A stretch of DNA of 64,000 nucleotides, taken from positions 265,204-329,203 of the forward strand of contig CALWKS010000003.1 in the NCBI GenBank assembly GCA_944381325.1, in the 5' to 3' direction. Below are positions 8,716-44,352 of the stretch, one piece after another. The number at the start of each line of letters is the position of its first letter. Positions within the stretch are counted from its first letter, which is position 1. This stretch comes from an uncultured Christensenellaceae bacterium (GTDB taxonomy: Bacteria; Bacillota; Clostridia; Christensenellales; UBA3700). Made by a program: the position numbers and the translations under genes. The notes beneath the pieces were generated by a model. It was not told where the DNA came from, did no database searches, and was given only the letters and a program-made list of their open reading frames with translations.

Positions 8716-10131
8716 TCAAGGTAAATCTCCCATATAAGGACCGATATGACATCCCGTTTCATCGAGCAAGACAATGAATTCAATATATTCCGAATCCTCA
8801 GTCATATGATAGTGCTTGTCGTTGGTCGAAACAGGAGCACCTACGTTGCATATCCTGATAAAGTTGAAACCCGGATCAAATTTATCTGCGCCGATACCGT
8901 CCACAATTATTTCCACTCTGTAAGGAATGTCTATATCGTAAAATTCGTAATCTTCGGATCCCGCCCTTTTTATCTCGGTTCTTACGCCCACCGGATAATA
9001 TGTATCCAGCGCGAAGAATCTGAACCGTATATATTGCTTTGAATCGAAGTTATCAACCGTGTATGTCGGATTTACCGGCTTTTCAAGTTTTTCACTTTCT
9101 TCCTGATAGGTGTATCCTTCATCTTTTTTGAACTGAGAAACCTTGCCTGAATTTCTGGCGGTTACGGTTATTATGCCGTTCTTTACCGTAAACGTACTGC
9201 TCGCTGTGTTTTCGGGATTAAAAATTTTCATTGAATAAATGCCGTCAGCGTCACTGAGATAATAAAGAATTCTTCCGCCTTTATAACTCTCTTTAAGCAA
9301 TCCGTCAATAATGACGAAATACCAATATGACTTTCCTTCGGAACTCATCAGCTCGTCCGTATACGCAAATTTATAAACCCCGTTTTCTAAAACGGTATCG
9401 TTTTGCAAAGAGGTTATTTTGCCCGTCTCGTCAACGGTGACTTTATATTCTATACTGCCCGACCTTGTTTTCATAAACAGATTTTTATCTGCGTCTATCA
9501 TAGGATATTCTTGAGAATTGGAAAGTCTGATCATATTGTCTCCTTGGACAAATTCTTCTGAAGGGATTTCTACAGACAACTTTCCGTTTTCATAATTTAC
9601 AACGGTATAACTCTTATATTTTGCACTATCTGCCGTTTTTATATCCGCAGATATGCCGTTTATTAAGAGATCGTTATATACTCCTGATAAAGAAATGTAT
9701 GTCTTGCCGTTTTTCTCAATTATTTCAGGCTCAAAAACAGGAATAAGCGACTCTTTTGTATTTTCTGAATATCTGTAATCCACATCCGCAGAATACTCTG
9801 TCTTTTGCCCGTTGTTGTCTATGGTCAGCTTGTCTCCCGACAATATGACCGACAGACTTCCTTCTGCCGAAACTGCGGTATAACATTCTTTATCCTTTCT
9901 CAGATTGTATGCTTTTATGTTGCCGTTCTCTGAAACCGTCATCTTTTCATTAATGATCGCGACCCAGTCTGAAGGCATATCTTCAGTGGACTCTTGCGCT
10001 TGTGCAGAAAGCAAATATACCCCATCTCGCATTGAATCGCTTTTAAAACCCAAATCACACGCGACAAAACTAAGACTCGCCGCGAGAACAACCAACACGA
10101 TAATAAATATTGAAAACGCCTTGTTTTTCAT
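8716..10131 (-). CDS. hypothetical lipoprotein
   Basis: 471-aa ORF with signal peptide and lipobox MKNKAFSIFIIVLVVLAASLSFVAC. No recognisable catalytic motif. Confidence 0.6.
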   Translation of the reverse strand: MKNKAFSIFIIVLVVLAASLSFVACDLGFKSDSMRDGVYLLSAQAQESTEDMPSDWVAIINEKMTVSENGNIKAYNLRKDKECYTAVSAEGSLSVILSGDKLTIDNNGQKTEYSADVDYRYSENTKESLIPVFEPEIIEKNGKTYISLSGVYNDLLINGISADIKTADSAKYKSYTVVNYENGKLSVEIPSEEFVQGDNMIRLSNSQEYPMIDADKNLFMKTRSGSIEYKVTVDETGKITSLQNDTVLENGVYKFAYTDELMSSEGKSYWYFVIIDGLLKESYKGGRILYYLSDADGIYSMKIFNPENTASSTFTVKNGIITVTARNSGKVSQFKKDEGYTYQEESEKLEKPVNPTYTVDNFDSKQYIRFRFFALDTYYPVGVRTEIKRAGSEDYEFYDIDIPYRVEIIVDGIGADKFDPGFNFIRICNVGAPVSTNDKHYHMTEDSEYIEFIVLLDETGCHIGPYMGDLP

Positions 10132-10186
10132 AATTTACCTCCTTTCAGAAAGAAATACTATCATTTCTTCAATAGCCATCAAAATG

Positions 10187-10930
10187 CTAATTAATTATAA
10201 ATATTGTCTCAACGAACTCAACAAAACCGTCATCTTCCCCCTCAGTAAACGTATCGTAAACATTAAAATATACTTTTACGTCTCCTATCTGCGTTTCCCC
10301 GTAAACAGTGTGCGTATACACTCCGTATTCTGCTTCAAAATTCGTAATTCGCCTGCAATCGATATCCAACCCATTCGATTCTACTTTTTCATCCGTAACT
10401 TTTTCAATATAGTCGTAATCTGAATTGACTACCAGATCTATTCTGCAAGTTGTAAAACCTTCGTCCTGCATTTCAACGATAAAATACAATTCGTCTCCGC
10501 TTTTTGAATCCTTTACAAGCGATATATTGGTAATATAATCAGGTTTTATCAGATATCCCGACAATACCGCATTGACATCGTCCAAATCGGCACTTACAGC
10601 CAACTCATCGTCATAACAATACTTATTTTCAGACGAATCGTCTTTTACACCGTCTTTTCCCCGGAAATATATCCCGCAAGGAATTAACACTGCGAGGATA
10701 ACAACAATGCTGATTGCAGAATACAACGCCTTCAATTTATTCTTCTTCGCTACAATATTGTCTTTTTCAGACCGCTTATCGCAGGCAGACATGAGTTTTT
10801 CATGAAACTCGTTATTCTGCAAGCCCTCAAGGCTTCTGTTCGCTATATTTTCGATGTTTTTATCTCTTTTCATAACTTTTTTATAATTTAGATGCGTTTT
10901 CCGTCTCTTCTCATTGCAGTCATAATGCAT
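10187..10930 (-). CDS. single-pass membrane protein, candidate anti-sigma factor
   Basis: Lies directly downstream of the sigma-factor gene. One hydrophobic segment, ALYSAISIVVILAVLIPCGIYF. The alternative start at 10873 (MKRDKN) is possible. The function is inferred from position only. Confidence 0.4.
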   Translation of the reverse strand: MHYDCNEKRRKTHLNYKKVMKRDKNIENIANRSLEGLQNNEFHEKLMSACDKRSEKDNIVAKKNKLKALYSAISIVVILAVLIPCGIYFRGKDGVKDDSSENKYCYDDELAVSADLDDVNAVLSGYLIKPDYITNISLVKDSKSGDELYFIVEMQDEGFTTCRIDLVVNSDYDYIEKVTDEKVESNGLDIDCRRITNFEAEYGVYTHTVYGETQIGDVKVYFNVYDTFTEGEDDGFVEFVETIFIIN

Positions 10931-10967
10931 TTATTTGTCTTTCTATAATATAAGAGTCATAAAATTA

Positions 10968-11513
10968 TCAATCGGATACATAAGTCTGCTTAATTTTATT
11001 AATCACACGTCTGTATTTTTGTTTTACCGTTGAAACTTTCATATTTAAAATTGCTGAAATCTCTCTCAGATTGTACGATTCCCAATGATATAAATATATT
11101 ATCAACTTAGTCTGCTCATCTTCGATCAGATTAAAAATTCTCTCTGTCATATCCTTATTTTCAAGACTTATTTCAAAATTTAATGACTGAATAAACGTTG
11201 AAACAGTTTTTTCTGAAAATTCAGAATCAACGAGAATCTCGTTGTATACTTTTGAATGATTTTTTATGATTATGTTTCTGCATGAAGAATACACCCAAGA
11301 AGACGGATTTTTTACAAACCTTACGCTCTTCCTGTTCAATAAATTAAGAAAAAACTCTTGCGCTATCTCCTCTGCGTCTACTTTCGGATAAACTCTTTTT
11401 ACATGCAAAACAATCCTTGGATAATAATATTTATAAAGAGCCGATAATGCTTCTTTATCCGATAAAGACTTATTCAGTAAATAATTAAATTTGATCACAT
11501 CCATAGCAGACAA
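10968..11513 (-). CDS. sigma-70 family (ECF-like) RNA polymerase sigma factor
   Basis: 181 aa. Region-2-like EEIAQEFFLNLLN and a region-4 HTH, YNLREISAILNMKVSTVKQKYRRVINKIK. The start may be the ATG at 11504 rather than the TTG at 11513. Confidence 0.75.
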   Translation of the reverse strand: MSAMDVIKFNYLLNKSLSDKEALSALYKYYYPRIVLHVKRVYPKVDAEEIAQEFFLNLLNRKSVRFVKNPSSWVYSSCRNIIIKNHSKVYNEILVDSEFSEKTVSTFIQSLNFEISLENKDMTERIFNLIEDEQTKLIIYLYHWESYNLREISAILNMKVSTVKQKYRRVINKIKQTYVSD

Positions 11514-11774
11514 TGAAAGCTATGAGTTGTTTTATAGATCATCCTCATAGACTTCCCCTTTATTTCATTATACAAATCTTTCTTTTGCATTTCAATACTC
11601 ATTTTTACGGTTAAAACCTTATTCCATGTGTAAAATCCGATACCAGAAAATCTTTGACAAACATTTACATTAAATCAAAATCACATTTCTATATAATATT
11701 TTAAATAATTAAAGATTACTTGGATTGCAAAACCTTTTCCCTTCTGTTATACTGAAAAAGTCGGAGGAAATTAA

Positions 11775-14057
11775 ATGAAAAAACTAAACAAGCTGTGCAA
11801 CGGATTTTTTAACAGACTCGACCTTTCAGACATCATAGGCGCTGATGCCGCAAAAGAAGACAACAAACTGTTCAACAAAGTTCTTGACCGCTTTCTTGAA
11901 AAAGGCAACAAAGAAGACGCTTTTGAAGTCTATTATTGCTTCAGTGAAATTTTCAGACTTTTCGGCAAAGGCTACGACAACACTCAGAAACTGCTTGAAT
12001 TGCTCTCAGATCACGAATATCATTCTGGTGAACTGCTTTCAAAGCACAGAGACCACTACTCTCATTCAGTTTACGTATTCGCTCTGGGTCTTGCAGTATA
12101 TGCGCACGATAAGACTTTCCGCAAAAACTTTCTGAGTTTTTACGATCTTCCCGACAATGCCGTCTCAGCGTCGACCTATCTCTATCTTTGGGGAATGACT
12201 TCCCTTTTCCACGACATCGGTTATCCTTTTCAGCTTGCGCACGAACAGATAAAGATTTACACTTCTGAACTGTGGGGAGAAAAGGCGGGGTTCAGACCGT
12301 ACGTCTCTTTCGGCAATCTTGATAAATTCATAGCGATCGACGAAAACGTAAGCGACAAGCTCAGCGATACGCTTTGCATTGACAGAAAATTCAGCACTCT
12401 TGACGAACTTCTCGCTTACGGGCTAAACAAAAGACTGGGCTTTGACGAAAATTTCATCGTTTCTCTTCTCAGAGAACGCATAATCAATCAGCCAAAATTT
12501 GTAGATCACGGATATTTCGGCGCAGTTACTCTAGCAAAACAGCTTCTCGATATGCCTGAATTCAAAATGACTGAACAGAGACTTGACGTCATAACCGCTA
12601 TTCTTCTGCATAACAGCCTCAGCAAATTCGATCTTAAGAGCTCTCACCCGATAAGCGCTGAAGAACATCCTCTCGCTTATATGCTCATGCTTTGCGACGA
12701 ATTGCAGAACTGGGATCGCCTCGCTTACGGCAAAGTCAGCAAAAGAGACCCGATTGCATGGGACATAAAAATCGATATATCAGACAATAACATTGAAATT
12801 GAATACCTTTTTGACAGCCGTTACGTAAAAGACTCTGACAATAACAAGCGCGAATGCAAGAGCTTTGCAGAAATATCGAGCGGAGATTATGCCGCTGCCA
12901 TAACAGGAAACGGCAATAAAAACGGATTTCTCAGCACTTCTCTCGTTCTCAATCTAACTGCGGGAGAATGCAGGAAGAAAAAGAAAAGCACGCTTTACGC
13001 ATCCGACAACAGCTTTATCAACCTCTGCGATTTTGCAAAGGCGATACACGCAAGCTACCTTGAAGAATGCAGAAATATGCAAGCGGAATATATAAACGAA
13101 ACTTTCGACAAGCTTCCGCTCGAATTCAAGATCTCTAATATCGAGCAAGCAAAATCGTATGCAGAAAAACTCGAGCTCATAAGTTGCTTTTACAGCAACA
13201 AAGACCTTGATTATCCTGTCGTGGAAGATTTTAAAAAGTCTGCGTACGGCAACAAAAACGCAGACAATCTGGGATTCTTATGCCGCGAAGAGCACGTGCG
13301 CTGGGTAAAAGAAAAACTGAGTATGGGCTGGAAATACGGCTCTGATTACTCTTCTTCTCAGGAACGCAACAAAAAGAAAATCCACAGAGACATAATCCCA
13401 TACGAAGTGCTCGACGAAAAAGAAAGAAAAAAAGACGAGATAATGATAAACAACATTATTCCTCTGCTTAAAAAATTCGGCAGTAACATTCGGATTTACA
13501 GCTATCGTACGGGCAGAAAACCTGACCTTGAAATTGCAGGCACCGGTCACAGATTTTTCAAAGGCGACAGAGAAAAAATCAAGAAAGAGATCAAAAAAAT
13601 CATTGAAAAATACAGCGAAAGCAACCGCGTGATCGTGCGCACCTGCTTTGCTTACGGCGCAGACCAGCTTATTGCAGAATGCGCAATTGAAGCAGGCGTT
13701 ACCGTAAAAGCCGTCATACCGACAGATTACGAAAATTATATAAAGGTCGTCAGAAAAGACTGCATTGACAACGGCATACCTTTTACCGAAGAAGACGAAC
13801 TCAGAATGAGACATCTCATTGCGCAGACTGCAGTATGCAAAACCGTAAAAGACGAAAATTATTTTTATACAGGCGCAAGTAAATATATCGTTGACAAATG
13901 CGACAAGCTGATAGCGTTATGGGACGGAAAAGAGCTCCCACTGGAAGAAAACGGCAAGCCCGTAAATATGGGCGGAACTTATTATTGCATAAACGAAGCC
14001 AGAAAGCGCGGACTCAAAGACGGCGAGGACATTTTCATTATCCCATGCGAAAGATAA
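11775..14057 (+). CDS. multidomain protein: N-terminal HD phosphohydrolase-like, central RyR-like repeats, C-terminal SLOG (DprA/LOG-like) Rossmannoid domain
   Basis: 760-aa ORF with a GGAGGA RBS. HD-type motifs HRDHYSHSVYV, LFHDIGYPF, LLHN, LCDELQNWDR. RyR-like segment EEHVRWVKEKLSMGWKYGSDY...IIPYEVLDEKERKKDE. SLOG-like segment CFAYGADQLIAECAIEAGVTVKAVIP...LIALWDGKEL...NMGGTYYCINEA. Confidence 0.6.
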   Translation: MKKLNKLCNGFFNRLDLSDIIGADAAKEDNKLFNKVLDRFLEKGNKEDAFEVYYCFSEIFRLFGKGYDNTQKLLELLSDHEYHSGELLSKHRDHYSHSVYVFALGLAVYAHDKTFRKNFLSFYDLPDNAVSASTYLYLWGMTSLFHDIGYPFQLAHEQIKIYTSELWGEKAGFRPYVSFGNLDKFIAIDENVSDKLSDTLCIDRKFSTLDELLAYGLNKRLGFDENFIVSLLRERIINQPKFVDHGYFGAVTLAKQLLDMPEFKMTEQRLDVITAILLHNSLSKFDLKSSHPISAEEHPLAYMLMLCDELQNWDRLAYGKVSKRDPIAWDIKIDISDNNIEIEYLFDSRYVKDSDNNKRECKSFAEISSGDYAAAITGNGNKNGFLSTSLVLNLTAGECRKKKKSTLYASDNSFINLCDFAKAIHASYLEECRNMQAEYINETFDKLPLEFKISNIEQAKSYAEKLELISCFYSNKDLDYPVVEDFKKSAYGNKNADNLGFLCREEHVRWVKEKLSMGWKYGSDYSSSQERNKKKIHRDIIPYEVLDEKERKKDEIMINNIIPLLKKFGSNIRIYSYRTGRKPDLEIAGTGHRFFKGDREKIKKEIKKIIEKYSESNRVIVRTCFAYGADQLIAECAIEAGVTVKAVIPTDYENYIKVVRKDCIDNGIPFTEEDELRMRHLIAQTAVCKTVKDENYFYTGASKYIVDKCDKLIALWDGKELPLEENGKPVNMGGTYYCINEARKRGLKDGEDIFIIPCER

Positions 14058-36575: not shown

Positions 36576-36607
36576 AAAAGACCTGCATAATCCGCGGGTC
36601 TTTTTTA
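36576..36607 (+). terminator. rho-independent terminator after leuB
   Basis: Stem GACCTGC / GCGGGTC (one G:U pair) with a 7-nt loop, then TTTTTT. Confidence 0.75.
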
Positions 36608-36704
36608 TTATATTACGATTTCAATAAGAACGTCGCAATGAACTTATTGCAATAAATATAAATTTGACATTTAATTCAGAGTCTTAAATCAAATCTTCGG
36701 GAAT

Positions 36705-36736
36705 TAAAAAAGCAGTGCTTAAAGCACTGCTTTTTA
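36705..36736. terminator. bidirectional terminator at the 3-prime end of the six-gene minus-strand operon
   Basis: AAAAAA, then stem AGCAGTGC / GCACTGCT, then TTTTT, 9 nt beyond the stop of the 36745..37536 gene. Confidence 0.75.
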
Positions 36737-36744
36737 TTTGCAGA

Positions 36745-37536
36745 TTATTTTAAATTATCCTGCCAGTTCTTATGTGCGTAATAATTGTTTATCTGTGTAT
36801 TCTGACGTTGTTCGTGTTTCCTCCCCCTCAATATGAGTACATCGCTGTACGGCGCATCAAACATCGTTTTCATGACTTCGCTGTATTTTTCAGGGTCAAT
36901 ATTCTTGCATGAGAATATATCCATAAGAACTTCTCCTGTCTCATAGCAATAATGCATTGCGATATGACTTTCAGCAATAAGAACTATTCCTGACATATAT
37001 TCTGCATTTTCTATTTTGTCTTTAAGAACACACGGGCGACTTATCGGATGCATATTTACATCATAAGGTAATTTGTCAAGCTTTTCAGTAAATTCGTCAA
37101 TTGTCGGCACATGATTGAGCTTTGCGCTTATCATATAATGGGGTCCGAAATCTGCAACGTCGTACATTCCCATATCGTTTTTCTTAAACTCGCTTCTGTC
37201 TATTCTTTTAATGAAAAAAGCATCGCAAGGAAACTCTTTTTTCAACAGTTTTTCAAGCAAATCTGCTGAAGCAAAACCGTCATAAAGAATATCAAGAAAA
37301 TAGCAATCAAGCTGAGGAAAAGTATGTATCGTGAGATGCCCTCCTTTGAGCAGCACAAATGCGCTTATACCCACGTCCTCCAGCTTTTCGCAATAATAAT
37401 AAGGAATAAGCTGCGGAGGCATAATCGACTTTAATCTCATAGATTTGACTATTTTATTCAGCACTTCATAAACATCCATCAAGTTATCCAAACGCTGAGT
37501 GCTGCATCCATACGAGTCCACCAGAACGTGTATCAT
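36745..37536 (-). CDS. tandem AdoMetDC-like (SpeH/pyruvoyl-enzyme fold) protein; N-terminal half degenerate, C-terminal half retains the ES self-cleavage motif
   Basis: 263 aa. Half 1, GISAFVLLKGGHLTIHTFPQLDCYFLDIL, aligns with the class-1 AdoMetDC motif (ISESHLTIHTWPE...IDLFTCG) but has GG in place of ES. Half 2, GIVLIAESHIAMHYCYETGEVLMDIFSCK, keeps ES-H. Confidence 0.6.
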   Translation of the reverse strand: MIHVLVDSYGCSTQRLDNLMDVYEVLNKIVKSMRLKSIMPPQLIPYYYCEKLEDVGISAFVLLKGGHLTIHTFPQLDCYFLDILYDGFASADLLEKLLKKEFPCDAFFIKRIDRSEFKKNDMGMYDVADFGPHYMISAKLNHVPTIDEFTEKLDKLPYDVNMHPISRPCVLKDKIENAEYMSGIVLIAESHIAMHYCYETGEVLMDIFSCKNIDPEKYSEVMKTMFDAPYSDVLILRGRKHEQRQNTQINNYYAHKNWQDNLK

Positions 37537-37537
37537 T

Positions 37538-38248
37538 TTAATTCTCCCTGTAGTATTTAGTAATTATATCGCTTTCCGAAAAATCATCGAGATTGATATA
37601 TGTCAAGTATTTACTTTCGCCATAAACTGAACGTTCTTTAAGCATATGCCAACATTCTACAGAATCTTCGTATAGAATATCGTAAAAATCAAATGTTTCT
37701 CCACCGGTGTTAAAACACGATTTTTTACCTTCTTTTACAATTTTAAAATCATTGAGAAATTCTAAATCCGTTACCAGATTTTTCATTAAAGTAAAAATGA
37801 TTTCTCTATTCTGTTCACTGCCCGAAAGCCTGTTCTTCCACTCATAAATTATACCGTAATATCTGCTGTATTCCCTATATTCTTTGGATAATATACCTCT
37901 GAATATCGACTCAGGATTGTAGAGAATATCTCTTTTTATTTCAGTAAGCGCGTAAATAATAACATCTAGATTGCATTGCTCTGCCTTGTAAAGTAGCTCG
38001 AATATCGAAACTATGTTGCGCGCATATTTACATTCGCCTTGCTTTGAAGAAGATTGCCCGACTTTCAGCCATTTGCAATAAGCAACTGCAAAAGCCACGT
38101 GCATCAATCTGTACATCTGCGCAATACTCCTCATATCCCGCGCATCTGCTTCAGGCATACCTGTCAACAATCTTATAGTCTTTTCGTCTCTTACAAGTCC
38201 GTTAACATACGTCGCAAGTTCTCTGTAGTTGTTTATTGCATATTCCAT
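37538..38248 (-). CDS. hypothetical protein (236 aa), no recognisable domain
   Basis: ORF with a GGAG RBS. Its start is 2 nt after the upstream stop and its stop is 1 nt before the next start, so it is translationally coupled within the operon. Confidence 0.5.
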   Translation of the reverse strand: MEYAINNYRELATYVNGLVRDEKTIRLLTGMPEADARDMRSIAQMYRLMHVAFAVAYCKWLKVGQSSSKQGECKYARNIVSIFELLYKAEQCNLDVIIYALTEIKRDILYNPESIFRGILSKEYREYSRYYGIIYEWKNRLSGSEQNREIIFTLMKNLVTDLEFLNDFKIVKEGKKSCFNTGGETFDFYDILYEDSVECWHMLKERSVYGESKYLTYINLDDFSESDIITKYYREN

Positions 38249-38250
38249 AT

Positions 38251-39150
38251 TTACTCCACGATTATTCTTGCCAGTTTCTTATAACGTTCAAGAGCTGTTT
38301 TTTCATCTTCTGCCAAAGCCTTGTTTCTTTGCAAATCGTAAAGAATGCCTTCTTGCCATTTAAAACGGCTTATTTCGTTTATCCCGAAACAGTCTTCAGA
38401 AATAAAATCTTTGCATATCCTCAGATTTCCCAGCTGTTCAAGCCTTTTGGCAACGTCAGCAGCAGCATTAGAGAGCTGGCGTACTCCGTCTATTTCAACA
38501 TCTGACGGAACAACTGTAGGAAGCAAAATAATATCGGTGTCGTCCCCGAAATTCCCTACTCTCATACTCATTCGCCCCAAATAATTAAAAGTTCCTATTC
38601 TGAACTGAATTGTCGGCCTCATACAAAATACAAGTTTATCCGCAATTTCAACGGCAAGTCTTGCTGAAAACTGATCTCCTGCCGCAGAATCCGCAACAGC
38701 AATTCTTACCCTGTTATTAACACAAAAATGTCTGAATTTTGACAATACGGCTTCTCTTGCGCCATCTATGACCGCTCTGTCAACAGTGTTACTGCTGTCA
38801 TCTACCCCCAAAAACATTACCGTATTGTCGTTTTCAAGTCCTAACTTTTTGCCAACCGGTTTAAAATGTTTATACAACGGATGATCCTGGATGCTTTCTC
38901 CGACGGAATTCTGAGGCCAGTTTTCTTCTCCCTTAATAAATTCTTTGACGTCGAACTGTCCTTTGAATTCATCCTGCATACCCAGAAGATAGGTCATACC
39001 TGCGCTCTCGATATCCATGTCGAGAAGAAGTATCGGAGCCCTGCCGTTTGCTCCGCTTTCCTGTGCAAGCAGCGGAAGGGTGTTGAGACAGGTTGTGCTT
39101 CTGCCCGCGCCGCCTTTATATGAAAAGAAAGTTGTAAATACTGTTGCCAT
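38251..39150 (-). CDS. ParA/MinD-like P-loop ATPase with a variant deviant Walker A (KGGAGRS)
   Basis: 299 aa. FFSYKGGAGRSTTCLNTL corresponds to KGGxGK(S/T)T of the ParA/MinD family but has Arg in place of the second Lys. Also ILLLDMDIESAG and RIAVADSAAGD (Walker B-like). Confidence 0.65.
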   Translation of the reverse strand: MATVFTTFFSYKGGAGRSTTCLNTLPLLAQESGANGRAPILLLDMDIESAGMTYLLGMQDEFKGQFDVKEFIKGEENWPQNSVGESIQDHPLYKHFKPVGKKLGLENDNTVMFLGVDDSSNTVDRAVIDGAREAVLSKFRHFCVNNRVRIAVADSAAGDQFSARLAVEIADKLVFCMRPTIQFRIGTFNYLGRMSMRVGNFGDDTDIILLPTVVPSDVEIDGVRQLSNAAADVAKRLEQLGNLRICKDFISEDCFGINEISRFKWQEGILYDLQRNKALAEDEKTALERYKKLARIIVE

Positions 39151-39151
39151 A

Positions 39152-40972
39152 TTATTTGTCTCCCCCTAAAAGATTGATAAGAGTATCAGGTTTATTCTTG
39201 AGTTCTCTGACCCATCCGTCAGCAAATTTTTCTGCGTCAGTTCTGAGTTTGATTCTGAGCTGATCCGCATCAGCGGCACTTTCTGTATTTACTCTGACGT
39301 ATTTATCTATAAAGCTGTAAATCATATCTCCTAAGAGCTTTTGCAATGTTTTTTCATGTTCTTCCAGCACAACATCTTTACCGAAATTTGAGTCAATTAT
39401 GTGAGTAAACGTATTTGTCAGCAAAACACAGAAAGAATCTTTTATGCTCTTTCTTAAAATGTTTTCAATAACGTAACTTTGTCTTAACGTTTCCAGTTCC
39501 TTTTCATGTTCCGCAGCAACATCCTGTTTTGTCTGTTCTCTTAAGCGCTTTTCAATACGCTTTGCTACTCTGTCTTCTGCTTCTTTTTCAAGCTCTTTCT
39601 TTGTTTTAAGACGCTCAGCGTATTCTCTTTCATACGTATCGTAATACATATAGAAGTCTGCAATCGCTTCTATATAACGTTCTGTATTCTCAACATCATA
39701 GGTCATGTTATCCCAAATCCAGTCCTGAGCGTTCATTCTTTCAAACAGCTCAAGGAAAAGCGTGCTCATCTGCTTTTGCGGATATTTTGAAATATAGAAA
39801 GCAATAAGGTTGTTAGCTTTAACAAGAATAGGAATTATACGTGCGTCTATCATCCTCTCAGTGTTAAGCAGCCTTATATACTTATCTCCCTTAGACTCAT
39901 GCAGAGACTGATAATTCATGTAATAAGTATCTACGATGTATTCTTTGTTTTCTTTTGAGAGCTGCTCGTATATTCGCTGAACGTTCTGCAATGCAGCATT
40001 CATAGTTGCGATAACGTCTTCCTGCTCCTCTTCGTTATCTCTAATGTTTGCATAACCGTAGACCAGAATAAATACCACATAAATAGTGTTGAACAACGCG
40101 TTTGAAGAAGAAGATTTCAAAATGTCGTCTTTCGTTATCGTTCTGATATTCTCGAGAAAATCATCACTTACAAGATCCGTCTTCAGAACCGTCTTGTATT
40201 TCTGCCATACATTTTCTGCAATTTTTTTACAAGCCTTAGACCAATCCTGCTCGATATGAGAATTTGCCTTATTTTCGTTAATCAATGCAATAAGTTCGCT
40301 GTCAGCGCCTTCGCCGCTGCCGTCGTCAAGCATTACGTTGTCTTCAAAGTCGCTGTATGCTTCGAGAACAGAATACGTAAAGAACAAAGACGGCCTTTTA
40401 CAATCCATAGTATAGTTCCATCCGAGAGGATTGTCCGCGGTTCCTATAACGGATTCATTGAATTTATTTATAATTTTTCTGATATGCTTAACAATGAGAT
40501 CATCATATTTTTGTTTTAAATCGATTATACCTGATTTTATTGCCTTTCTTACGCTTGCCAGCAAGGACAGCGTCCATGTCATAGCTCCCGTATAAGGGTA
40601 AACCGATGAAAACAGTTCGGCATTTTTCTTCTCAGAAACATAAGGGTAAAGATCGTAACCTTTATTGTCGATATAATCGAGTATCCCGATAAGACATCCT
40701 TCAAGATCTTCCTTATATTCTTCAGGCAAAACTACATTCATTCTGTTTATCAGCGAAAAAATACCCGTACAACCGAACACATCGCTGAAAAAGCCTATTT
40801 TTCTCTCTTTGTCATCTGAAATAAAATGCAGTTTACCATCAACCTTAACCGTCATTTGCCACAAGCTTTGCAAAATCTTTTCGCCAATGACTTTTACGTC
40901 AACGTAATTTTTAAAAGTGGACGACTGATCAGTCCGTCCGGGGAACAAAACCTGTTTAATACTGTCTCTCAT
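39152..40972 (-). CDS. hypothetical protein (606 aa), helical, with a charged coiled-coil-like C-terminal region
   Basis: ORF in the operon. No motif recognised by eye. The E/K/R-rich segment YEREYAERLKTKKELEKEAEDRVAKRIEKRLREQTKQDVAAEHEKELETLRQ suggests a coiled coil. Confidence 0.5.
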   Translation of the reverse strand: MRDSIKQVLFPGRTDQSSTFKNYVDVKVIGEKILQSLWQMTVKVDGKLHFISDDKERKIGFFSDVFGCTGIFSLINRMNVVLPEEYKEDLEGCLIGILDYIDNKGYDLYPYVSEKKNAELFSSVYPYTGAMTWTLSLLASVRKAIKSGIIDLKQKYDDLIVKHIRKIINKFNESVIGTADNPLGWNYTMDCKRPSLFFTYSVLEAYSDFEDNVMLDDGSGEGADSELIALINENKANSHIEQDWSKACKKIAENVWQKYKTVLKTDLVSDDFLENIRTITKDDILKSSSSNALFNTIYVVFILVYGYANIRDNEEEQEDVIATMNAALQNVQRIYEQLSKENKEYIVDTYYMNYQSLHESKGDKYIRLLNTERMIDARIIPILVKANNLIAFYISKYPQKQMSTLFLELFERMNAQDWIWDNMTYDVENTERYIEAIADFYMYYDTYEREYAERLKTKKELEKEAEDRVAKRIEKRLREQTKQDVAAEHEKELETLRQSYVIENILRKSIKDSFCVLLTNTFTHIIDSNFGKDVVLEEHEKTLQKLLGDMIYSFIDKYVRVNTESAADADQLRIKLRTDAEKFADGWVRELKNKPDTLINLLGGDK

Positions 40973-40998
40973 ACCTTTTCTCCAGAGTACTTTATTTT

Positions 40999-42042
40999 TC
41001 AGTTAATGTGCTTGGTCAAGCAATGGAATCCTCCGCCGCCTAGATACGCTTCGGAAGCGTCAAGCATTATTATGTCCCTGTCGGGATAAACTTCTTTTAC
41101 TATCTTATAAGCTTCTTTATCTTCTTTCAGTCCGAACGAAGGCAATATTACTGCACCGTTCACCTGAGCGTAATTCACGTATGTGTAAAGGACTACGTCC
41201 CCGCTCTTCCTTGAATAACTGCCTGCAACATCCAATATATTACTGCTGTCAGATTCAGTTCTCATATGAAAAGACGGCACGGGAAGTTTTACTATATTAT
41301 AATAATTTCCGTCAGCATCTTTTACCGAACTGAGCAATTTGTATAAATTCTGCGTTACCTTATAATGAGGATTAGTTTTATCGTCAGTATAAGACAGCAA
41401 CATTGTGTGTTTGTCGGCAAACGCCAGCACATTGTCGATATGCCCTCCTGTTTCGTCACCTTCAAGCCCGTATGGCAACCATACAATCTGTTTGCTGCCG
41501 GTAGCTTTAAGAAGGATTTTCTCTATCTGAGCTTTGCTCATCGACGGATTTCTATTGTCGTTTACCACGCTGTCTTCAACAATGAAAATTGTTCCGTTAC
41601 CGTCAGGAGTGATATTTCCCCATTCCATTGTAACTGGATAACGACTTATTTCATATCCGAACAATCGGCTTGTCAAAGTTTCGTTAAGAGCAGCATCCTT
41701 ATCCCATGAAGCATACATTCTGCCACCGTAAGCGTTAAAGCCTAAAGCACATATTTTTTTATCGTTGTCATCAAAGCACACGCTTCCCAGCATATCTCTT
41801 GCCCAACAATCGTCGTATTCCACCTCGAAAAGCTCTACATCAGATTCAAAAGCATATTGTTCGCGAATTTTATCTTTCATCCCTGGTAAAACTCCAAGAA
41901 CTACCTTCTGATATCTTGCAATAGAATTTACAAGTGCGGTCATCATTTTCTGAGCAGGGATTGCGTTTTCTCTCCAGACGTCTTCTCTGTAAGGAAAAAG
42001 CGTTATCGTCGCCAGTTGTTTTTCGTACTCTCCTTTTAACAT
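40999..42042 (-). CDS. agmatine deiminase / peptidylarginine deiminase-family (guanidino-group modifying) enzyme homolog
   Basis: The ORF track gives 40999..42084; the likely start is the ATG at 42042 (MLKGEYEKQ) after a GGAGG RBS. Motifs DDCWARDMLG, ETGGHIDNVLAF, and C-terminal GGGGFHCLTKHIN with the catalytic Cys context of the family. Confidence 0.75.
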   Translation of the reverse strand: MLKGEYEKQLATITLFPYREDVWRENAIPAQKMMTALVNSIARYQKVVLGVLPGMKDKIREQYAFESDVELFEVEYDDCWARDMLGSVCFDDNDKKICALGFNAYGGRMYASWDKDAALNETLTSRLFGYEISRYPVTMEWGNITPDGNGTIFIVEDSVVNDNRNPSMSKAQIEKILLKATGSKQIVWLPYGLEGDETGGHIDNVLAFADKHTMLLSYTDDKTNPHYKVTQNLYKLLSSVKDADGNYYNIVKLPVPSFHMRTESDSSNILDVAGSYSRKSGDVVLYTYVNYAQVNGAVILPSFGLKEDKEAYKIVKEVYPDRDIIMLDASEAYLGGGGFHCLTKHIN

Positions 42043-42055
42043 AAAAACCTCCGGA

Positions 42056-43804
42056 TTACTTCGTATATCTCGTAAGCAACACACTATTGCTTCTGGTCAG
42101 CACGTTAAGTATTGAAGAATCCAATGTAGCAAGATAACAGAATGCCTGTGCAAACTTTTTATATTCATCGTTTACTGCATCGTATACTATTACGGTATCT
42201 CCCGACCCCGACATTGCTGCATTGACCCCAGTCGAATACCAGGATGCGCTTGCCGAATTGTTGTTTATAAAAAGAACAAAGCTGTAACACGGCTCAATGC
42301 ACATCTCAGGGGTTATCGCCAGACAATACAAGTTATTCATAGCCTCTTCTACATCTTCGTCTGAAACTTCGATTTCTTCCCCGTTATCATCGTATTTGAA
42401 TTGCATCCAGTTTGCTATTTTGGGGAATGGACATGCTATTTTTTCATCGCTGAATTTTGCATTGAGCGCGTAGTTTACTATTTTTTTAGATTCGATTGAA
42501 TCAAGTTTTATTTCCCTAAGTTGCCACCTCTCCATATCGCGCAGCTTTACGCAATATTTGCAATATCTTCTGAGTTCATTGACCAATACAGAATTTACGT
42601 CCATTATGCCGTTCAAAACGTCTGCAAATTTCTCCATAAATTCAATAAACTTATAAGCGTCGGCTTTCGCGTTACTTTCAAGCGTATCTCCACCGTAATC
42701 AGCGGATAGCCATTTTTTAAAATTCTCCGGCACCGTATAGATGTCTTCGTCAAAATCGTCGTATAATATCGTAAAAGCGTTGAAATCCGACGAAAGAAGC
42801 GCATCAAGTTCTTTCATCCCATCGTTGATCACTACGTGATATTTTTGGAATAAATCTTTCTTCTTTACGTTATCAAAAGAATTGAAAAAATCTATTATCT
42901 TATTGCGTTGGCAGAATTCTCTTCTTATCATATTTGAAACTTCCTGCCTTGCCTTGTCATCTTTCTTTATAAAGCTTTTTATTTTGTTTTTAAAAGGTTC
43001 CCAGCTTTCTCTTACATAGTCTTTAGGGCAATAATAATAATACTTAACCCCGTCTATTTTTCCAGCAATGTTTTTTGCAGCAAGATTACTGGATATTATC
43101 ATACAAGAATAAGTATTACAATCATAGTTATTTAATTCATTTGTGAGAATGTGCGCCTCCTTAAGCAAAGTAGGATTTGCTTCGTCGCAAGATTTTATAT
43201 CGTCATTAACTGAACGGGATATACAATCTTTTCCAATGCAATATTTAAGAAGATCAACAAACCTTCTTGAATCCAGCATATTGTCGTGAGCATAATTTAT
43301 ATTTTCGAGCAACGCAGATATATATTTTCTTGTCAGCTCTTTAAATATCCTGGACGAGGTAGCCGGCGTAAAATATCTGATAAGAGTATCTTTCTCTATT
43401 AGCCTTAAAGATTTAATGCTATCAGGAAGAGAATCGTATGTAATAGAAGAATCAAGAGCTATCGGATAAACCTGAAGCCTGTTATTGGACATAGATACCA
43501 TCTCTGAATAGCTCTTGAGTTCTTTAAGAACTTCGTTCGAAGCAAGAGAATTCTTCGATAAAACAGGTATCATCAGACAAGTTTTCGAAATCTGTTCATT
43601 AATTTCCTTCTCATACTTGTCACCTCCGAAATTTCTTTCGACCCCGTTTTCGTAATACATACTCCAATAGCATAATTCCAAAGACTCCATGCCTTTTATA
43701 ATTTCACTAACCTTTTCAATGTCCGCGCTACAAAGTGAAACGAACATTTTATATCTCTCCAGATTCAGCTTTTCTGCAAGGTTTTCAATCGCATTTTTAT
43801 TCAT
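42056..43804 (-). CDS. 582-aa protein with an N-terminal TIR-like domain and an uncharacterised C-terminal region
   Basis: GGAGGA RBS. Residues about 18-100, YKMFVSLCSADIEKVSEIIKGMESLELCYWSMYY...EKEINEQISKTCLMIPVLSKNSLASNEVLKELKS, follow the TIR pattern (hFhSxxxxD ... hhhhhS ... S.W...E). This assignment is tentative. Confidence 0.5.
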   Translation of the reverse strand: MNKNAIENLAEKLNLERYKMFVSLCSADIEKVSEIIKGMESLELCYWSMYYENGVERNFGGDKYEKEINEQISKTCLMIPVLSKNSLASNEVLKELKSYSEMVSMSNNRLQVYPIALDSSITYDSLPDSIKSLRLIEKDTLIRYFTPATSSRIFKELTRKYISALLENINYAHDNMLDSRRFVDLLKYCIGKDCISRSVNDDIKSCDEANPTLLKEAHILTNELNNYDCNTYSCMIISSNLAAKNIAGKIDGVKYYYYCPKDYVRESWEPFKNKIKSFIKKDDKARQEVSNMIRREFCQRNKIIDFFNSFDNVKKKDLFQKYHVVINDGMKELDALLSSDFNAFTILYDDFDEDIYTVPENFKKWLSADYGGDTLESNAKADAYKFIEFMEKFADVLNGIMDVNSVLVNELRRYCKYCVKLRDMERWQLREIKLDSIESKKIVNYALNAKFSDEKIACPFPKIANWMQFKYDDNGEEIEVSDEDVEEAMNNLYCLAITPEMCIEPCYSFVLFINNNSASASWYSTGVNAAMSGSGDTVIVYDAVNDEYKKFAQAFCYLATLDSSILNVLTRSNSVLLTRYTK

Positions 43805-43884
43805 TTTTTTCCTCCGTATATATGCTTTGTCCTTAGCAAAATTTTATCTCTCAGCGATTGATATTATTTTATCATATAAATATT

Positions 43885-43910
43885 GATTTTACAACATTTT
43901 TTGTAAAATC
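43885..43910. promoter_or_regulatory. perfect 10-bp inverted repeat in the promoter region of the six-gene operon (candidate operator)
   Basis: GATTTTACAA-CATTTT-TTGTAAAATC. On the minus strand it overlaps a candidate promoter: TTGTAA, 17-nt spacer, TAAAAT. Confidence 0.4.
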
Positions 43911-43920
43911 AGCTGTAGGC

Positions 43921-43955
43921 AAAAAAATACGCGCTCACATTCGGAGCGCGTTTTT
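43921..43955 (-). terminator. rho-independent terminator after mgsA
   Basis: 8-bp stem ACGCGCTC / GAGCGCGT with a 7-nt loop, followed by a T-run on the minus strand (A-run 43921-43927 on plus). Confidence 0.7.
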
Positions 43956-43971
43956 CAGTATTTTGTCTACA

Positions 43972-44352
43972 TTAATTTATAAGCGTCGACGTTATCATAT
44001 AGTTCGCTGTTGCAGTGTTGGTTGCGATAGGGATATCGTAAACAACTGCGATGCGCAAAAGCGCTTTGACGTCGGGGTCGTGAGGCTGTGCGTTGAGGGG
44101 ATCCCAGAAAAAAACGACTGCGTCGATCTCGCCTTCTGCGATCTTTGCGCCTATCTGCTGGTCGCCGCCGAGAGGACCTGAAAGATATCTTTTCACTTCA
44201 AGTCCGGTTGCGTCGCCTACGAGCTTTGCCGTAGTGCCTGTGCCGCAAAGGTTGAATCTTGCGAGAGAGTCCTTGTTCTTCATTGCCCAGCTGACCATTT
44301 CAGCTTTTTTCTGATCGTGCGCGATAAGTGCCAGCGTTCTGATTTTTTTCAT
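43972..44352 (-). CDS. mgsA: methylglyoxal synthase
   Basis: 126 aa. [20 protein letters not shown]...LCGTGTT...[11 protein letters not shown]. Confidence 0.9.

Follow-up and report, generated by a model that had tools for sequence, protein, structure and literature searches.

A fused SpeD-SpeD gene with a catalytically dead first half: a predicted arginine decarboxylase in a TIR/ATPase gene cassette of a Christensenellaceae bacterium

The window analysed here is a stretch of 64,000 nucleotides (nt) from an uncultured Christensenellaceae bacterium (assembly GCA_944381325.1, contig CALWKS010000003.1, positions 265,204 to 329,203), and the gene under study, which closes an operon on its minus strand, encodes two SpeD domains of the S-adenosylmethionine decarboxylase (AdoMetDC) type fused in one chain. 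Both halves of the protein have the SpeD fold and only the C-terminal half (C-half) keeps Ser190, His195 and Cys210, the residues needed for self-cleavage and catalysis in this fold. Sequence and structural modelling together support the view that two class 1b SpeD domains form, within a single chain, a pseudo-heterodimer with one site. Taken as a whole, the reading in which this one-site pseudo-heterodimer cleaves itself, converts L-arginine into agmatine and serves the gene cassette in which it is embedded, a cassette built around a TIR-domain protein and a ParA/MinD-like ATPase, is in our judgement slightly better than even.

The initial annotation had described two tandem copies of a SpeH-type motif, and both of the strings that it quoted were indeed found in the 263-amino acid (aa) open reading frame (ORF) on the minus strand. 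Copy 1, LLKGGHLTIHTFPQ...FLDIL, spans residues 62-84 and, as had been noted, lacks the Glu-Ser pair, KGGH standing in place of xESH; copy 2, LIAESHIAMHY...MDIFSCK, spans residues 186-211 and keeps the cleavage residues. Codons checked by hand place Gly66 at 37339-37341, Ser190 at 36967-36969, His195 at 36952-36954 and Cys210 at 36907-36909. The whole protein matches the Pfam family PF02675 (AdoMet_dc) in two stretches, with an E-value of 9e-28 and 97.2 bits against a cut-off of 25, which is far beyond chance. When the whole 1.99-Mb genome was scanned in six frames with the same 25-bit cut-off, each half is recognized on its own (56 bits and E 6.9e-15 for the N-terminal half, or N-half; 44.7 bits and E 2.4e-11 for the C-half) and these are the only PF02675 matches. 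The two halves also recognize each other, since a profile of the N-half aligned with a profile of the C-half (hhalign probability 95.5%, E 1.6e-8) pairs Gly66 with Ser190, His71 with His195 and Asp86 with Cys210. The N-half thus has Gly at the position of the cleavage Ser and Asp at that of the catalytic Cys, and it retains an HTFP motif including the proline of AdoMetDC type. Comparison of the family profile of the N-half with the SpeD structures of Thermotoga maritima and Aquifex aeolicus gave the same picture, with Gly at the cleavage Ser and no Cys at the catalytic Cys.

A word-based search returned 323 relatives, nearly all 258-280 aa long, and when 1.84 billion representatives were searched exhaustively with a profile, 58 clusters (defined at 50% identity) had E <= 1e-30 and 417 had E <= 1e-10. 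Genomes were then scanned, one for each species (~185,000 species genomes), which yielded 199 loci, the best 80 of which were kept; ORFs were crudely called in these and in the window, six loci in which the ORF caller missed the focal gene (L026, L033, L059, L068, L071 and L072) were left out, and the remaining 75 sequences underlie all counts out of 75 given below. In the C-half, Ser190, His191, His195, Tyr196 and Cys210 are each present in 75/75, the serine is preceded at position 189 by Gln in 59 sequences and by Glu in 16, and the consensus reads A[E/Q]SHIAxHY. Ser190, His195 and Cys210 are the equivalents of S63, H68 and C83 of T. maritima SpeD, which are essential for processing and catalysis according to the study by Li, Liang, Phillips and Michael in J Biol Chem (Li et al., 2023; PMC10407285). 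In the N-half, position 66 is Gly in 73 sequences and position 86, aligned to Cys, is Asp in 57, while H67, T69, H71, T72, F73 and P74 are each invariant. The dead-N-half/active-C-half pattern is therefore a family trait rather than a local mutation. Nor is the N-half decaying: mean pairwise identity is 45.6% in the N-half and 44.4% in the C-half, and each has 19 invariant columns, those of the N-half including D54, S58, H67, H71, C78 and D82. At two loci (L069 and L073) the N-half reads GSH, with Ser at position 66, and the equivalent of the catalytic Cys is still absent.

The fused form was not seen in phage or viral data, where three phage records and 23 viral loci gave matches of ~0.1-0.36 kb, which is single-domain size compared with ~0.79 kb for the fused gene. 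When single-domain relatives of the C-half were sought by the word-based search, only three fragments of the fused family itself were recovered. Longer fusions do exist, one of which (P0122) came from the word-based search and more from the exhaustive profile search. Two of these distant relatives carry domains with an assigned family, the SpeD pair being joined to an agmatine deiminase domain (PAD_porph) in P0182 (602 aa) and to a radical S-adenosylmethionine (SAM) domain in P0180 (599 aa), the latter mirroring one of the cassette types described below (type D). Two others, P0122 (571 aa) and P0156 (480 aa), have additional N-terminal regions without assigned family. The equivalent of His195 is lost in P0122, P0180 and P0182.

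Structure prediction, which the initial annotation had proposed as a check, gave an AdoMetDC-like fold in both halves. An AlphaFold model built from a 30-sequence alignment has a mean predicted local distance difference test score (pLDDT) of 84.1 and a predicted template modelling (TM) score of 0.84, with the same strand-helix pattern repeated twice. The top Foldseek matches are the SpeD proteins of T. maritima and A. aeolicus (E about 1e-7; TM normalized to the target about 0.8, and 0.81 for T. maritima), followed by human AdoMetDC with a probability of 1.0. With VIA-align, the match to T. maritima SpeD has a Z-score of 16 for each half of the model (for residues 1-119, Z 16.0 and a root-mean-square deviation, rmsd, of 2.4 Å over 112 aligned residues). 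Residues 1-240 also superpose on the proenzyme of human class 2 AdoMetDC in its uncleaved form, with Z 14.3 and an rmsd of 3.3 Å over 204 aligned residues, so that the two halves of the model pack like those of class 2 enzymes.

These results agree with the earlier proposal of a single chain with one active and one structural half in so far as the cleavage and catalytic residues are confined to the second half, but 'structural' appears too weak a word for the first. Since it is conserved as well as the C-half, the dead N-half probably contributes to the single active site or to a regulatory pocket. The proenzyme (30.7 kDa) would cleave itself between Glu189 and Ser190, turning Ser190 into a pyruvoyl group. 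This would yield a beta chain (residues 1-189, about 21.8 kDa) comprising the whole N-half and the front of the C-half, and an alpha chain (residues 190-263, about 8.9 kDa before the conversion of Ser to pyruvoyl) starting with the pyruvoyl group. The one active site would lie at the interface of the halves, the N-half supplying its second wall or a regulatory pocket.

Fused SpeD pairs have been described before. Li et al. (2023; PMC10407285) report SpeD1-SpeD2 fusions in Desulfotignum phosphitoxidans (278 aa), Candidatus Omnitrophica (318 aa) and Victivallis vadensis (271 aa). In the first two, both halves self-cleave, the N-half being a true AdoMetDC and the C-half an ornithine decarboxylase, and in the third the C-terminal half is dead. 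The authors used these fusions to model how the class 2 enzyme of eukaryotes, which likewise has a C-terminal dead half, came about. The present family resembles them in having two class 1b domains in one chain of similar length, and V. vadensis also combines one dead with one active half. However, where the N-terminal AdoMetDC of the published proteins is active, the N-terminal Ser and Cys are missing in 73/75 of the present members; where the published genes adjoin speE, the present ones neighbour genes for agmatine enzymes and a TIR/ATPase cassette; and where the published C-halves are of ornithine decarboxylase type or a dead remnant, the present one is of active type and, judged by eye, lacks the ETS...GHF pattern of the supplementary alignment in that work. 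Judged by its residues, the reversed polarity (N-half dead, C-half of active type) is new among fused SpeD pairs, and no paper describing an N-dead/C-active SpeD fusion was found in the limited literature collection searched.

Like human class 2 AdoMetDC (PDB 1jl0 and 1msv), the protein is a single-chain pseudo-dimer of SpeD-like halves with one pyruvoyl site (predicted in the present case), but in the human enzyme the serine (Ser68) is N-terminal and the C-half is dead, whereas the serine of the fused gene is C-terminal, and identity is 9%. It therefore looks like an independent fusion with a polarity opposite to that of class 2. The fold and the predicted pyruvoyl chemistry are shared with the AdoMetDC-derived single-domain arginine decarboxylases known as SpeDA (from Sulfolobus, Marinimicrobia and Capsulimonas, among others; PMC10407285 and PMC13625781), which have likewise lost the AdoMetDC-type proline and whose genes cluster with speB or aguA. 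Those enzymes are homo-oligomers of a chain of ~120-140 aa in which all sites are active, in contrast to the fused pair with its one predicted site. Among eukaryotes, the AdoMetDC of Trypanosoma brucei is reportedly activated by a dead prozyme partner. This pair (PDB 5tvm and 5tvf), which matches the fold with Z-scores of 8.2-9.1, also combines an active with a dead paralogue, but as two separate class 2 chains.

What surrounds the gene in other genomes bears directly on its substrate. Five layouts were distinguished among the 75 loci. Type A (10 loci including the window) comprises genes for a TIR protein, an agmatine deiminase, a toroid protein, an ATPase, a 236-aa protein and the fused protein. 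Type B (14 loci) has a deiminase or an agmatinase, the toroid protein, the ATPase, a 750-aa protein, the fused gene and a ~510-aa protein. Type C (12 loci) consists of TIR, toroid protein, ATPase, 750-aa protein and fused gene. Type D (11 loci) consists of a TIR protein with leucine-rich repeats, an 880-aa protein, ATPase, 750-aa protein, fused gene, a radical SAM protein and a phosphoenolpyruvate (PEP)-utilizing enzyme. Type E (25 loci) has no more than an agmatinase gene followed by the fused gene. Of the remaining loci, one has core genes only and two are without core genes, and L044 was assigned to type D by the sorting rule though its layout is A/B-like. The same gene order was found in 48/75 loci, and when a tree of the fused protein was quickly built by maximum likelihood, each layout fell into essentially one well-supported clade (approximate likelihood-ratio test, SH-aLRT, 98-99).

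The initial annotation had called the substrate (SAM, arginine or something else) unknown, but the question is not wholly open, as gene context and one domain fusion favour arginine and several tests oppose SAM. On this basis L-arginine is, with moderate confidence, the most likely substrate and agmatine its product, i.e. the protein is a predicted arginine decarboxylase. According to Li et al. (2023), true AdoMetDCs invariably have a proline after the second His (HTWP), a residue that the forms with arginine decarboxylase activity do not conserve. At the corresponding position 198 of the active C-half the five commonest residues among the 75 sequences (Y 35, I 18, V 10, K 8 and L 3) do not include Pro, and the dead N-half keeps the AdoMetDC-type proline in 75/75. 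Spermidine synthase (PF01564) had no match in the window's own genome, which is 92.8% complete, and no convincing match in 10 other carrier genomes, four of which gave partial matches of 19-29 bits; speE is never a neighbour of the fused gene at the 75 loci. At 47/75 loci a gene for an agmatinase of the arginase family (TIGR01230) or for an agmatine deiminase (PAD_porph) lies nearby on the same strand. The bare agmatinase-fused gene module of 25/75 loci has a median gap of 0 nt and housekeeping flanks, and is found in Bacilli, Anaeroplasmataceae and Mollicutes. At two loci (L016 and L024) an agmatinase occupies the position that the agmatine deiminase holds in sister loci, a non-homologous replacement suggesting that agmatine is the shared metabolite. 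The fusion of a SpeD pair to an agmatine deiminase domain in P0182 points the same way. Gene-context logic of this kind is how Li et al. (2023; PMC10407285) found the SpeD homologues of arginine decarboxylase type. A further fusion, P0254, in which a single SpeD is joined to a deoxyhypusine synthase-like domain, was not used as evidence for arginine because it keeps the AdoMetDC proline.

Several points weigh against the arginine reading. SpeD homologues of arginine decarboxylase type have no positive sequence signature, so that the C-half motif can only exclude other classes, not identify this one. The protein just passes the NCBIfam equivalog model for AdoMetDC, TIGR03330 (77.7 against a cut-off of 75.65 bits, with two stretches summed), and public records name its relatives 'S-adenosylmethionine decarboxylase', a name that is probably due to this summed pass. 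P0182, the fusion to a deiminase domain, belongs to a distant subfamily without a His195 equivalent and is a single sequence on a 3-kb contig. Both the self-cleavage and the substrate are predicted. In the window's genome, the product of the deiminase has no recognized onward route, the only CN_hydrolase match being NadE and the best match to putrescine carbamoyltransferase reaching 313 bits against a cut-off of 500. With no putrescine route, the path from arginine through agmatine to N-carbamoylputrescine looks like chemistry belonging to the cassette rather than a polyamine supply. One other polyamine-type amino-acid decarboxylase candidate was seen in this genome, a 428-aa protein on contig C4:118131-121568 (locus L085, ORF 1027-2313 on the minus strand) with weak matches to the Orn/Lys/Arg decarboxylase major domain (38.8 and 29.8 bits), and the genome's only Orn_Arg_deC_N match is LysA.

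In five genomes with cassettes of type C or D, neither an agmatinase-family nor a PAD_porph gene was found anywhere (5/5). Since Li et al. (2023; PMC10407285) take such an absence of agmatine enzymes as pointing to ornithine decarboxylase, the type C and D clades could, by analogy, use ornithine or another substrate. Decarboxylation of a different free amino acid, most plausibly of L-ornithine to putrescine (or of lysine), either in all clades or only where the cassette lacks an agmatine enzyme, would also fit with the C-terminal domain of the published SpeD fusions being of ornithine decarboxylase type. However, in the supplementary alignment of that paper those C-domains read ETS...GHF around the pyruvoyl serine, which is not the motif of the present family: of the four residues diagnostic for ornithine decarboxylase (Gln, Thr, Phe and Tyr), whose positions were deduced from that alignment, Thr and the GHF are absent by eye. 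The agmatine enzymes adjoining the gene at nearly two-thirds of the loci, and fused to it in one relative, likewise speak against ornithine, which we regard as unlikely, if the foremost of the other substrates. A still less probable possibility is that the cassette makes or uses a conjugate that contains arginine or derives from SAM, e.g. a nucleotide- or ADP-ribose-linked amino acid, and that this conjugate is the substrate, so that the decarboxylase would mature or destroy the cassette's molecule. This would fit the constant presence of the fused gene in a cassette with TIR or CorA-like membrane proteins as variable ends, would give a place to the radical SAM fusion in P0180 and to the radical SAM and PEP-utilizing enzyme genes added in type D, and would be in keeping with the dead end at N-carbamoylputrescine in this genome. 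Yet such a conjugate is purely conjectural, and the 25 two-gene agmatinase modules fit free arginine and agmatine well.

Two further explanations seem very improbable, to about the same extent. That the protein is a genuine AdoMetDC, in line with its public annotation, is what the PF02675 and TIGR03330 scores above cut-off and the names in the source records would suggest, but the active half lacks the proline that all true AdoMetDCs share, searches for spermidine synthase found none in its own genome and no convincing one in the 10 other carriers, and the partner genes encode agmatine enzymes instead of SpeE. That it is no longer an enzyme but stays uncleaved and serves the cassette as a ligand-binding or scaffolding subunit, comparable to the dead prozyme of trypanosome AdoMetDC, could be argued from the fact that one half is dead already and that three distant relatives (P0122, P0180 and P0182) have no His195 equivalent; the invariance of Ser190, His195 and Cys210 in 75/75 sequences over five clades would nevertheless be hard to explain without catalysis. 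A decarboxylase acting on free arginine is thus the reading that we retain.

In the window, a row of six closely packed genes on the minus strand ends with the fused gene (Table 1), and the stop of the preceding gene lies 1 nt before its start. In types B, C and D, the position of that preceding gene is held by one for a ~750-aa protein without known family (e.g. L011:5761-7998), the first ~250 residues of which are homologous to the 236-aa protein of the window (hhalign probability 99.7%, E 3.4e-27). The 746-aa protein had no usable match in the protein atlas, and the ~750-aa core protein was found in 2/399 genomes of a class-level sample. The ATPase matches NF047398, the 'KGGVGR-motif variant AAA ATPase' family, below cut-off (E 5.8e-12). 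The model of the 606-aa toroid protein (pLDDT 86.7) includes a coiled coil of about 170 residues, and its best Foldseek matches are GH76 mannanases and cellobiose 2-epimerases (E 1.5e-5, TM normalized to the target 0.61); no Pfam family was found in any of 30 members, and an assignment to the SCO2524 family (atlas score 0.85, below the reliable range) is no more than a lead, as neither Pfam (0/30) nor NCBIfam supports it. The deiminase-like enzyme is the genome's only PAD_porph match and scores below the cut-off of TIGR03380 (agmatine_aguA; E 5e-89, 298.8 against 381.8 bits). Its listed GTG start gives an overlap of 29 nt with the end of the TIR gene, and translation may in fact begin at an ATG 14 codons downstream (42042), which lies 13 nt beyond the TIR stop. 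The TIR protein itself has weak TIR matches, and its homologue at L002 matches Pfam TIR_2 with E 8.3e-9. Just upstream of the TIR gene lie a terminator-like site (43951-43929) and promoter-like hexamers (43907-43866). At the other end of the operon, the inverted repeat between the converging genes was absent from a simple terminator scan, presumably because its loop is shorter than the 3-base minimum of that scan.

Table 1. The fused gene, its parts and the genes of its operon, with positions in the window
Feature	Position	Strand	Basis
Probable two-way terminator (inverted repeat with flanking A/T runs) between converging leuB and fused gene	36709..36738	-	Read on DNA
Fused SpeD-SpeD gene, 263 aa + stop, last gene of operon	36745..37536	-	ORF, PF02675, AlphaFold model
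C-half, residues 125-263, active-type SpeD domain followed by C-terminal helix (242-261)	36748..37164	-	Residue conservation, secondary structure of model
Glu189-Ser190, predicted self-cleavage site	36967..36972	-	Codons read on DNA
N-half, residues 1-124, catalytically dead SpeD domain	37165..37536	-	SpeD alignment, hhalign of halves
236-aa protein without known family	37538..38248	-	No Pfam, NCBIfam or PADLOC match
ParA/MinD-like ATPase, Arg replacing P-loop Lys (YKGGAGRS)	38251..39150	-	NCBIfam NF047398; motif read
606-aa protein, (alpha/alpha)6 barrel (about 1-425) and long coiled coil (427-600)	39152..40972	-	Model
Agmatine deiminase-like enzyme, PAD_porph fold, GGGGFHC at end	40999..42084	-	TIGR03380
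582-aa TIR-domain protein, first gene of operon	42056..43804	-	Weak TIR matches

The operon is flanked by leuCDB on one side and by a methylglyoxal synthase-like gene and a fucosidase gene on the other, and its guanine-plus-cytosine (GC) content is 0.34-0.41 against 0.44-0.50 in the flanks. The fused gene is present in 2/41 related genomes, its own and one of 14 others of the genus. The operon is horizontally acquired and accessory, and since the fused gene is its last gene the enzyme probably serves the cassette and not housekeeping polyamine synthesis. The operon DNA (36600-44000) or large parts of it was also seen in metagenome contigs from animal gut, faeces, bird and sludge samples (nine studies), with no RNA run among the 24 runs listed.

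The other cassette types differ mainly at their ends. In type B, the ~510-aa protein (L011:8780-10363 and 12 other loci) has two hydrophobic segments at its C-terminus. It has a weak PADLOC match to CorA-like proteins (E 5e-6) and may be a membrane effector replacing the TIR protein. Type D is illustrated by L023, where the fused gene is directly followed by a radical SAM protein of the MSMEG_0568/variant rSAM family (8815-9888) and then by a protein that resembles PEP synthase or rifampicin phosphotransferase and has PPDK_N and PEP-utilizers mobile domains (9872-11989). The presence of these genes suggests that type D cassettes carry extra small-molecule chemistry.

With its constant core, swappable TIR or membrane-protein ends, rare and patchy spread and low GC content, the cassette looks like a defence or conflict system, i.e. 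a candidate for an undescribed bacterial immune system that is rare and mobile. No named system in PADLOC-DB 2.0 matched the seven window proteins and 12 proteins from related cassettes that were searched; weak matches were found at the level of domains, of the ATPase P-loop to the candidate PDC-M28B, of the TIR domains to ThsB-type models and of the CorA-like protein. In the limited collection of literature searched, including a look-up of PMC13069673, there was no paper on this cassette, on ATPases with a 'KGGVGR' motif or on any defence system that includes an arginine decarboxylase. The swappable end module is reminiscent of Thoeris and related TIR signalling systems and of the CorA effectors of type III CRISPR, but unlike these the cassette comes without a cyclase, SLOG or Macro partner, and a decarboxylase was found as a core gene in no defence system. 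How such a cassette might work can be outlined only tentatively. A trigger would be sensed by the core (the toroid/coiled-coil protein, the ParA-like ATPase with Arg in its P-loop and the 236- or 750-aa protein), which would switch on the fused arginine decarboxylase. The resulting amine would activate or feed the end module, be it the TIR protein, the CorA-like membrane protein or the pair of radical SAM and PEP-utilizing enzymes. Where present, the agmatine deiminase or agmatinase would clear the signal, much as ring nucleases clear cyclic nucleotides. That agmatine, or a close derivative of it, is the working small molecule or signal of an immune-type cassette, together with these steps of core activation, output and clearance, is on present evidence a long shot. 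If true, this would be the first defence-type system built on a pyruvoyl decarboxylase and an amine signal derived from an amino acid.

The family has implications beyond this one operon. For the evolution of the AdoMetDC fold, it would represent a second, independent route to a single-chain enzyme with one site, with the dead half coming first, and its reversed polarity bears on the published model in which bacterial fusions gave rise to the eukaryotic class 2 enzyme. Its members probably carry a wrong annotation, that of AdoMetDC, in databases, and the two-gene agmatinase module of Bacilli and Mollicutes may be an unrecognized route to putrescine in gut bacteria. More surprising than the dead-half-first architecture is, however, the fixed place of the gene in a TIR/ATPase cassette: in Clostridia, the fused enzyme is a constant part of a rare and mobile cassette with swappable ends, and should the cassette prove to be an immune system, its core would include, in the form of an amino-acid decarboxylase, a component of a new kind.

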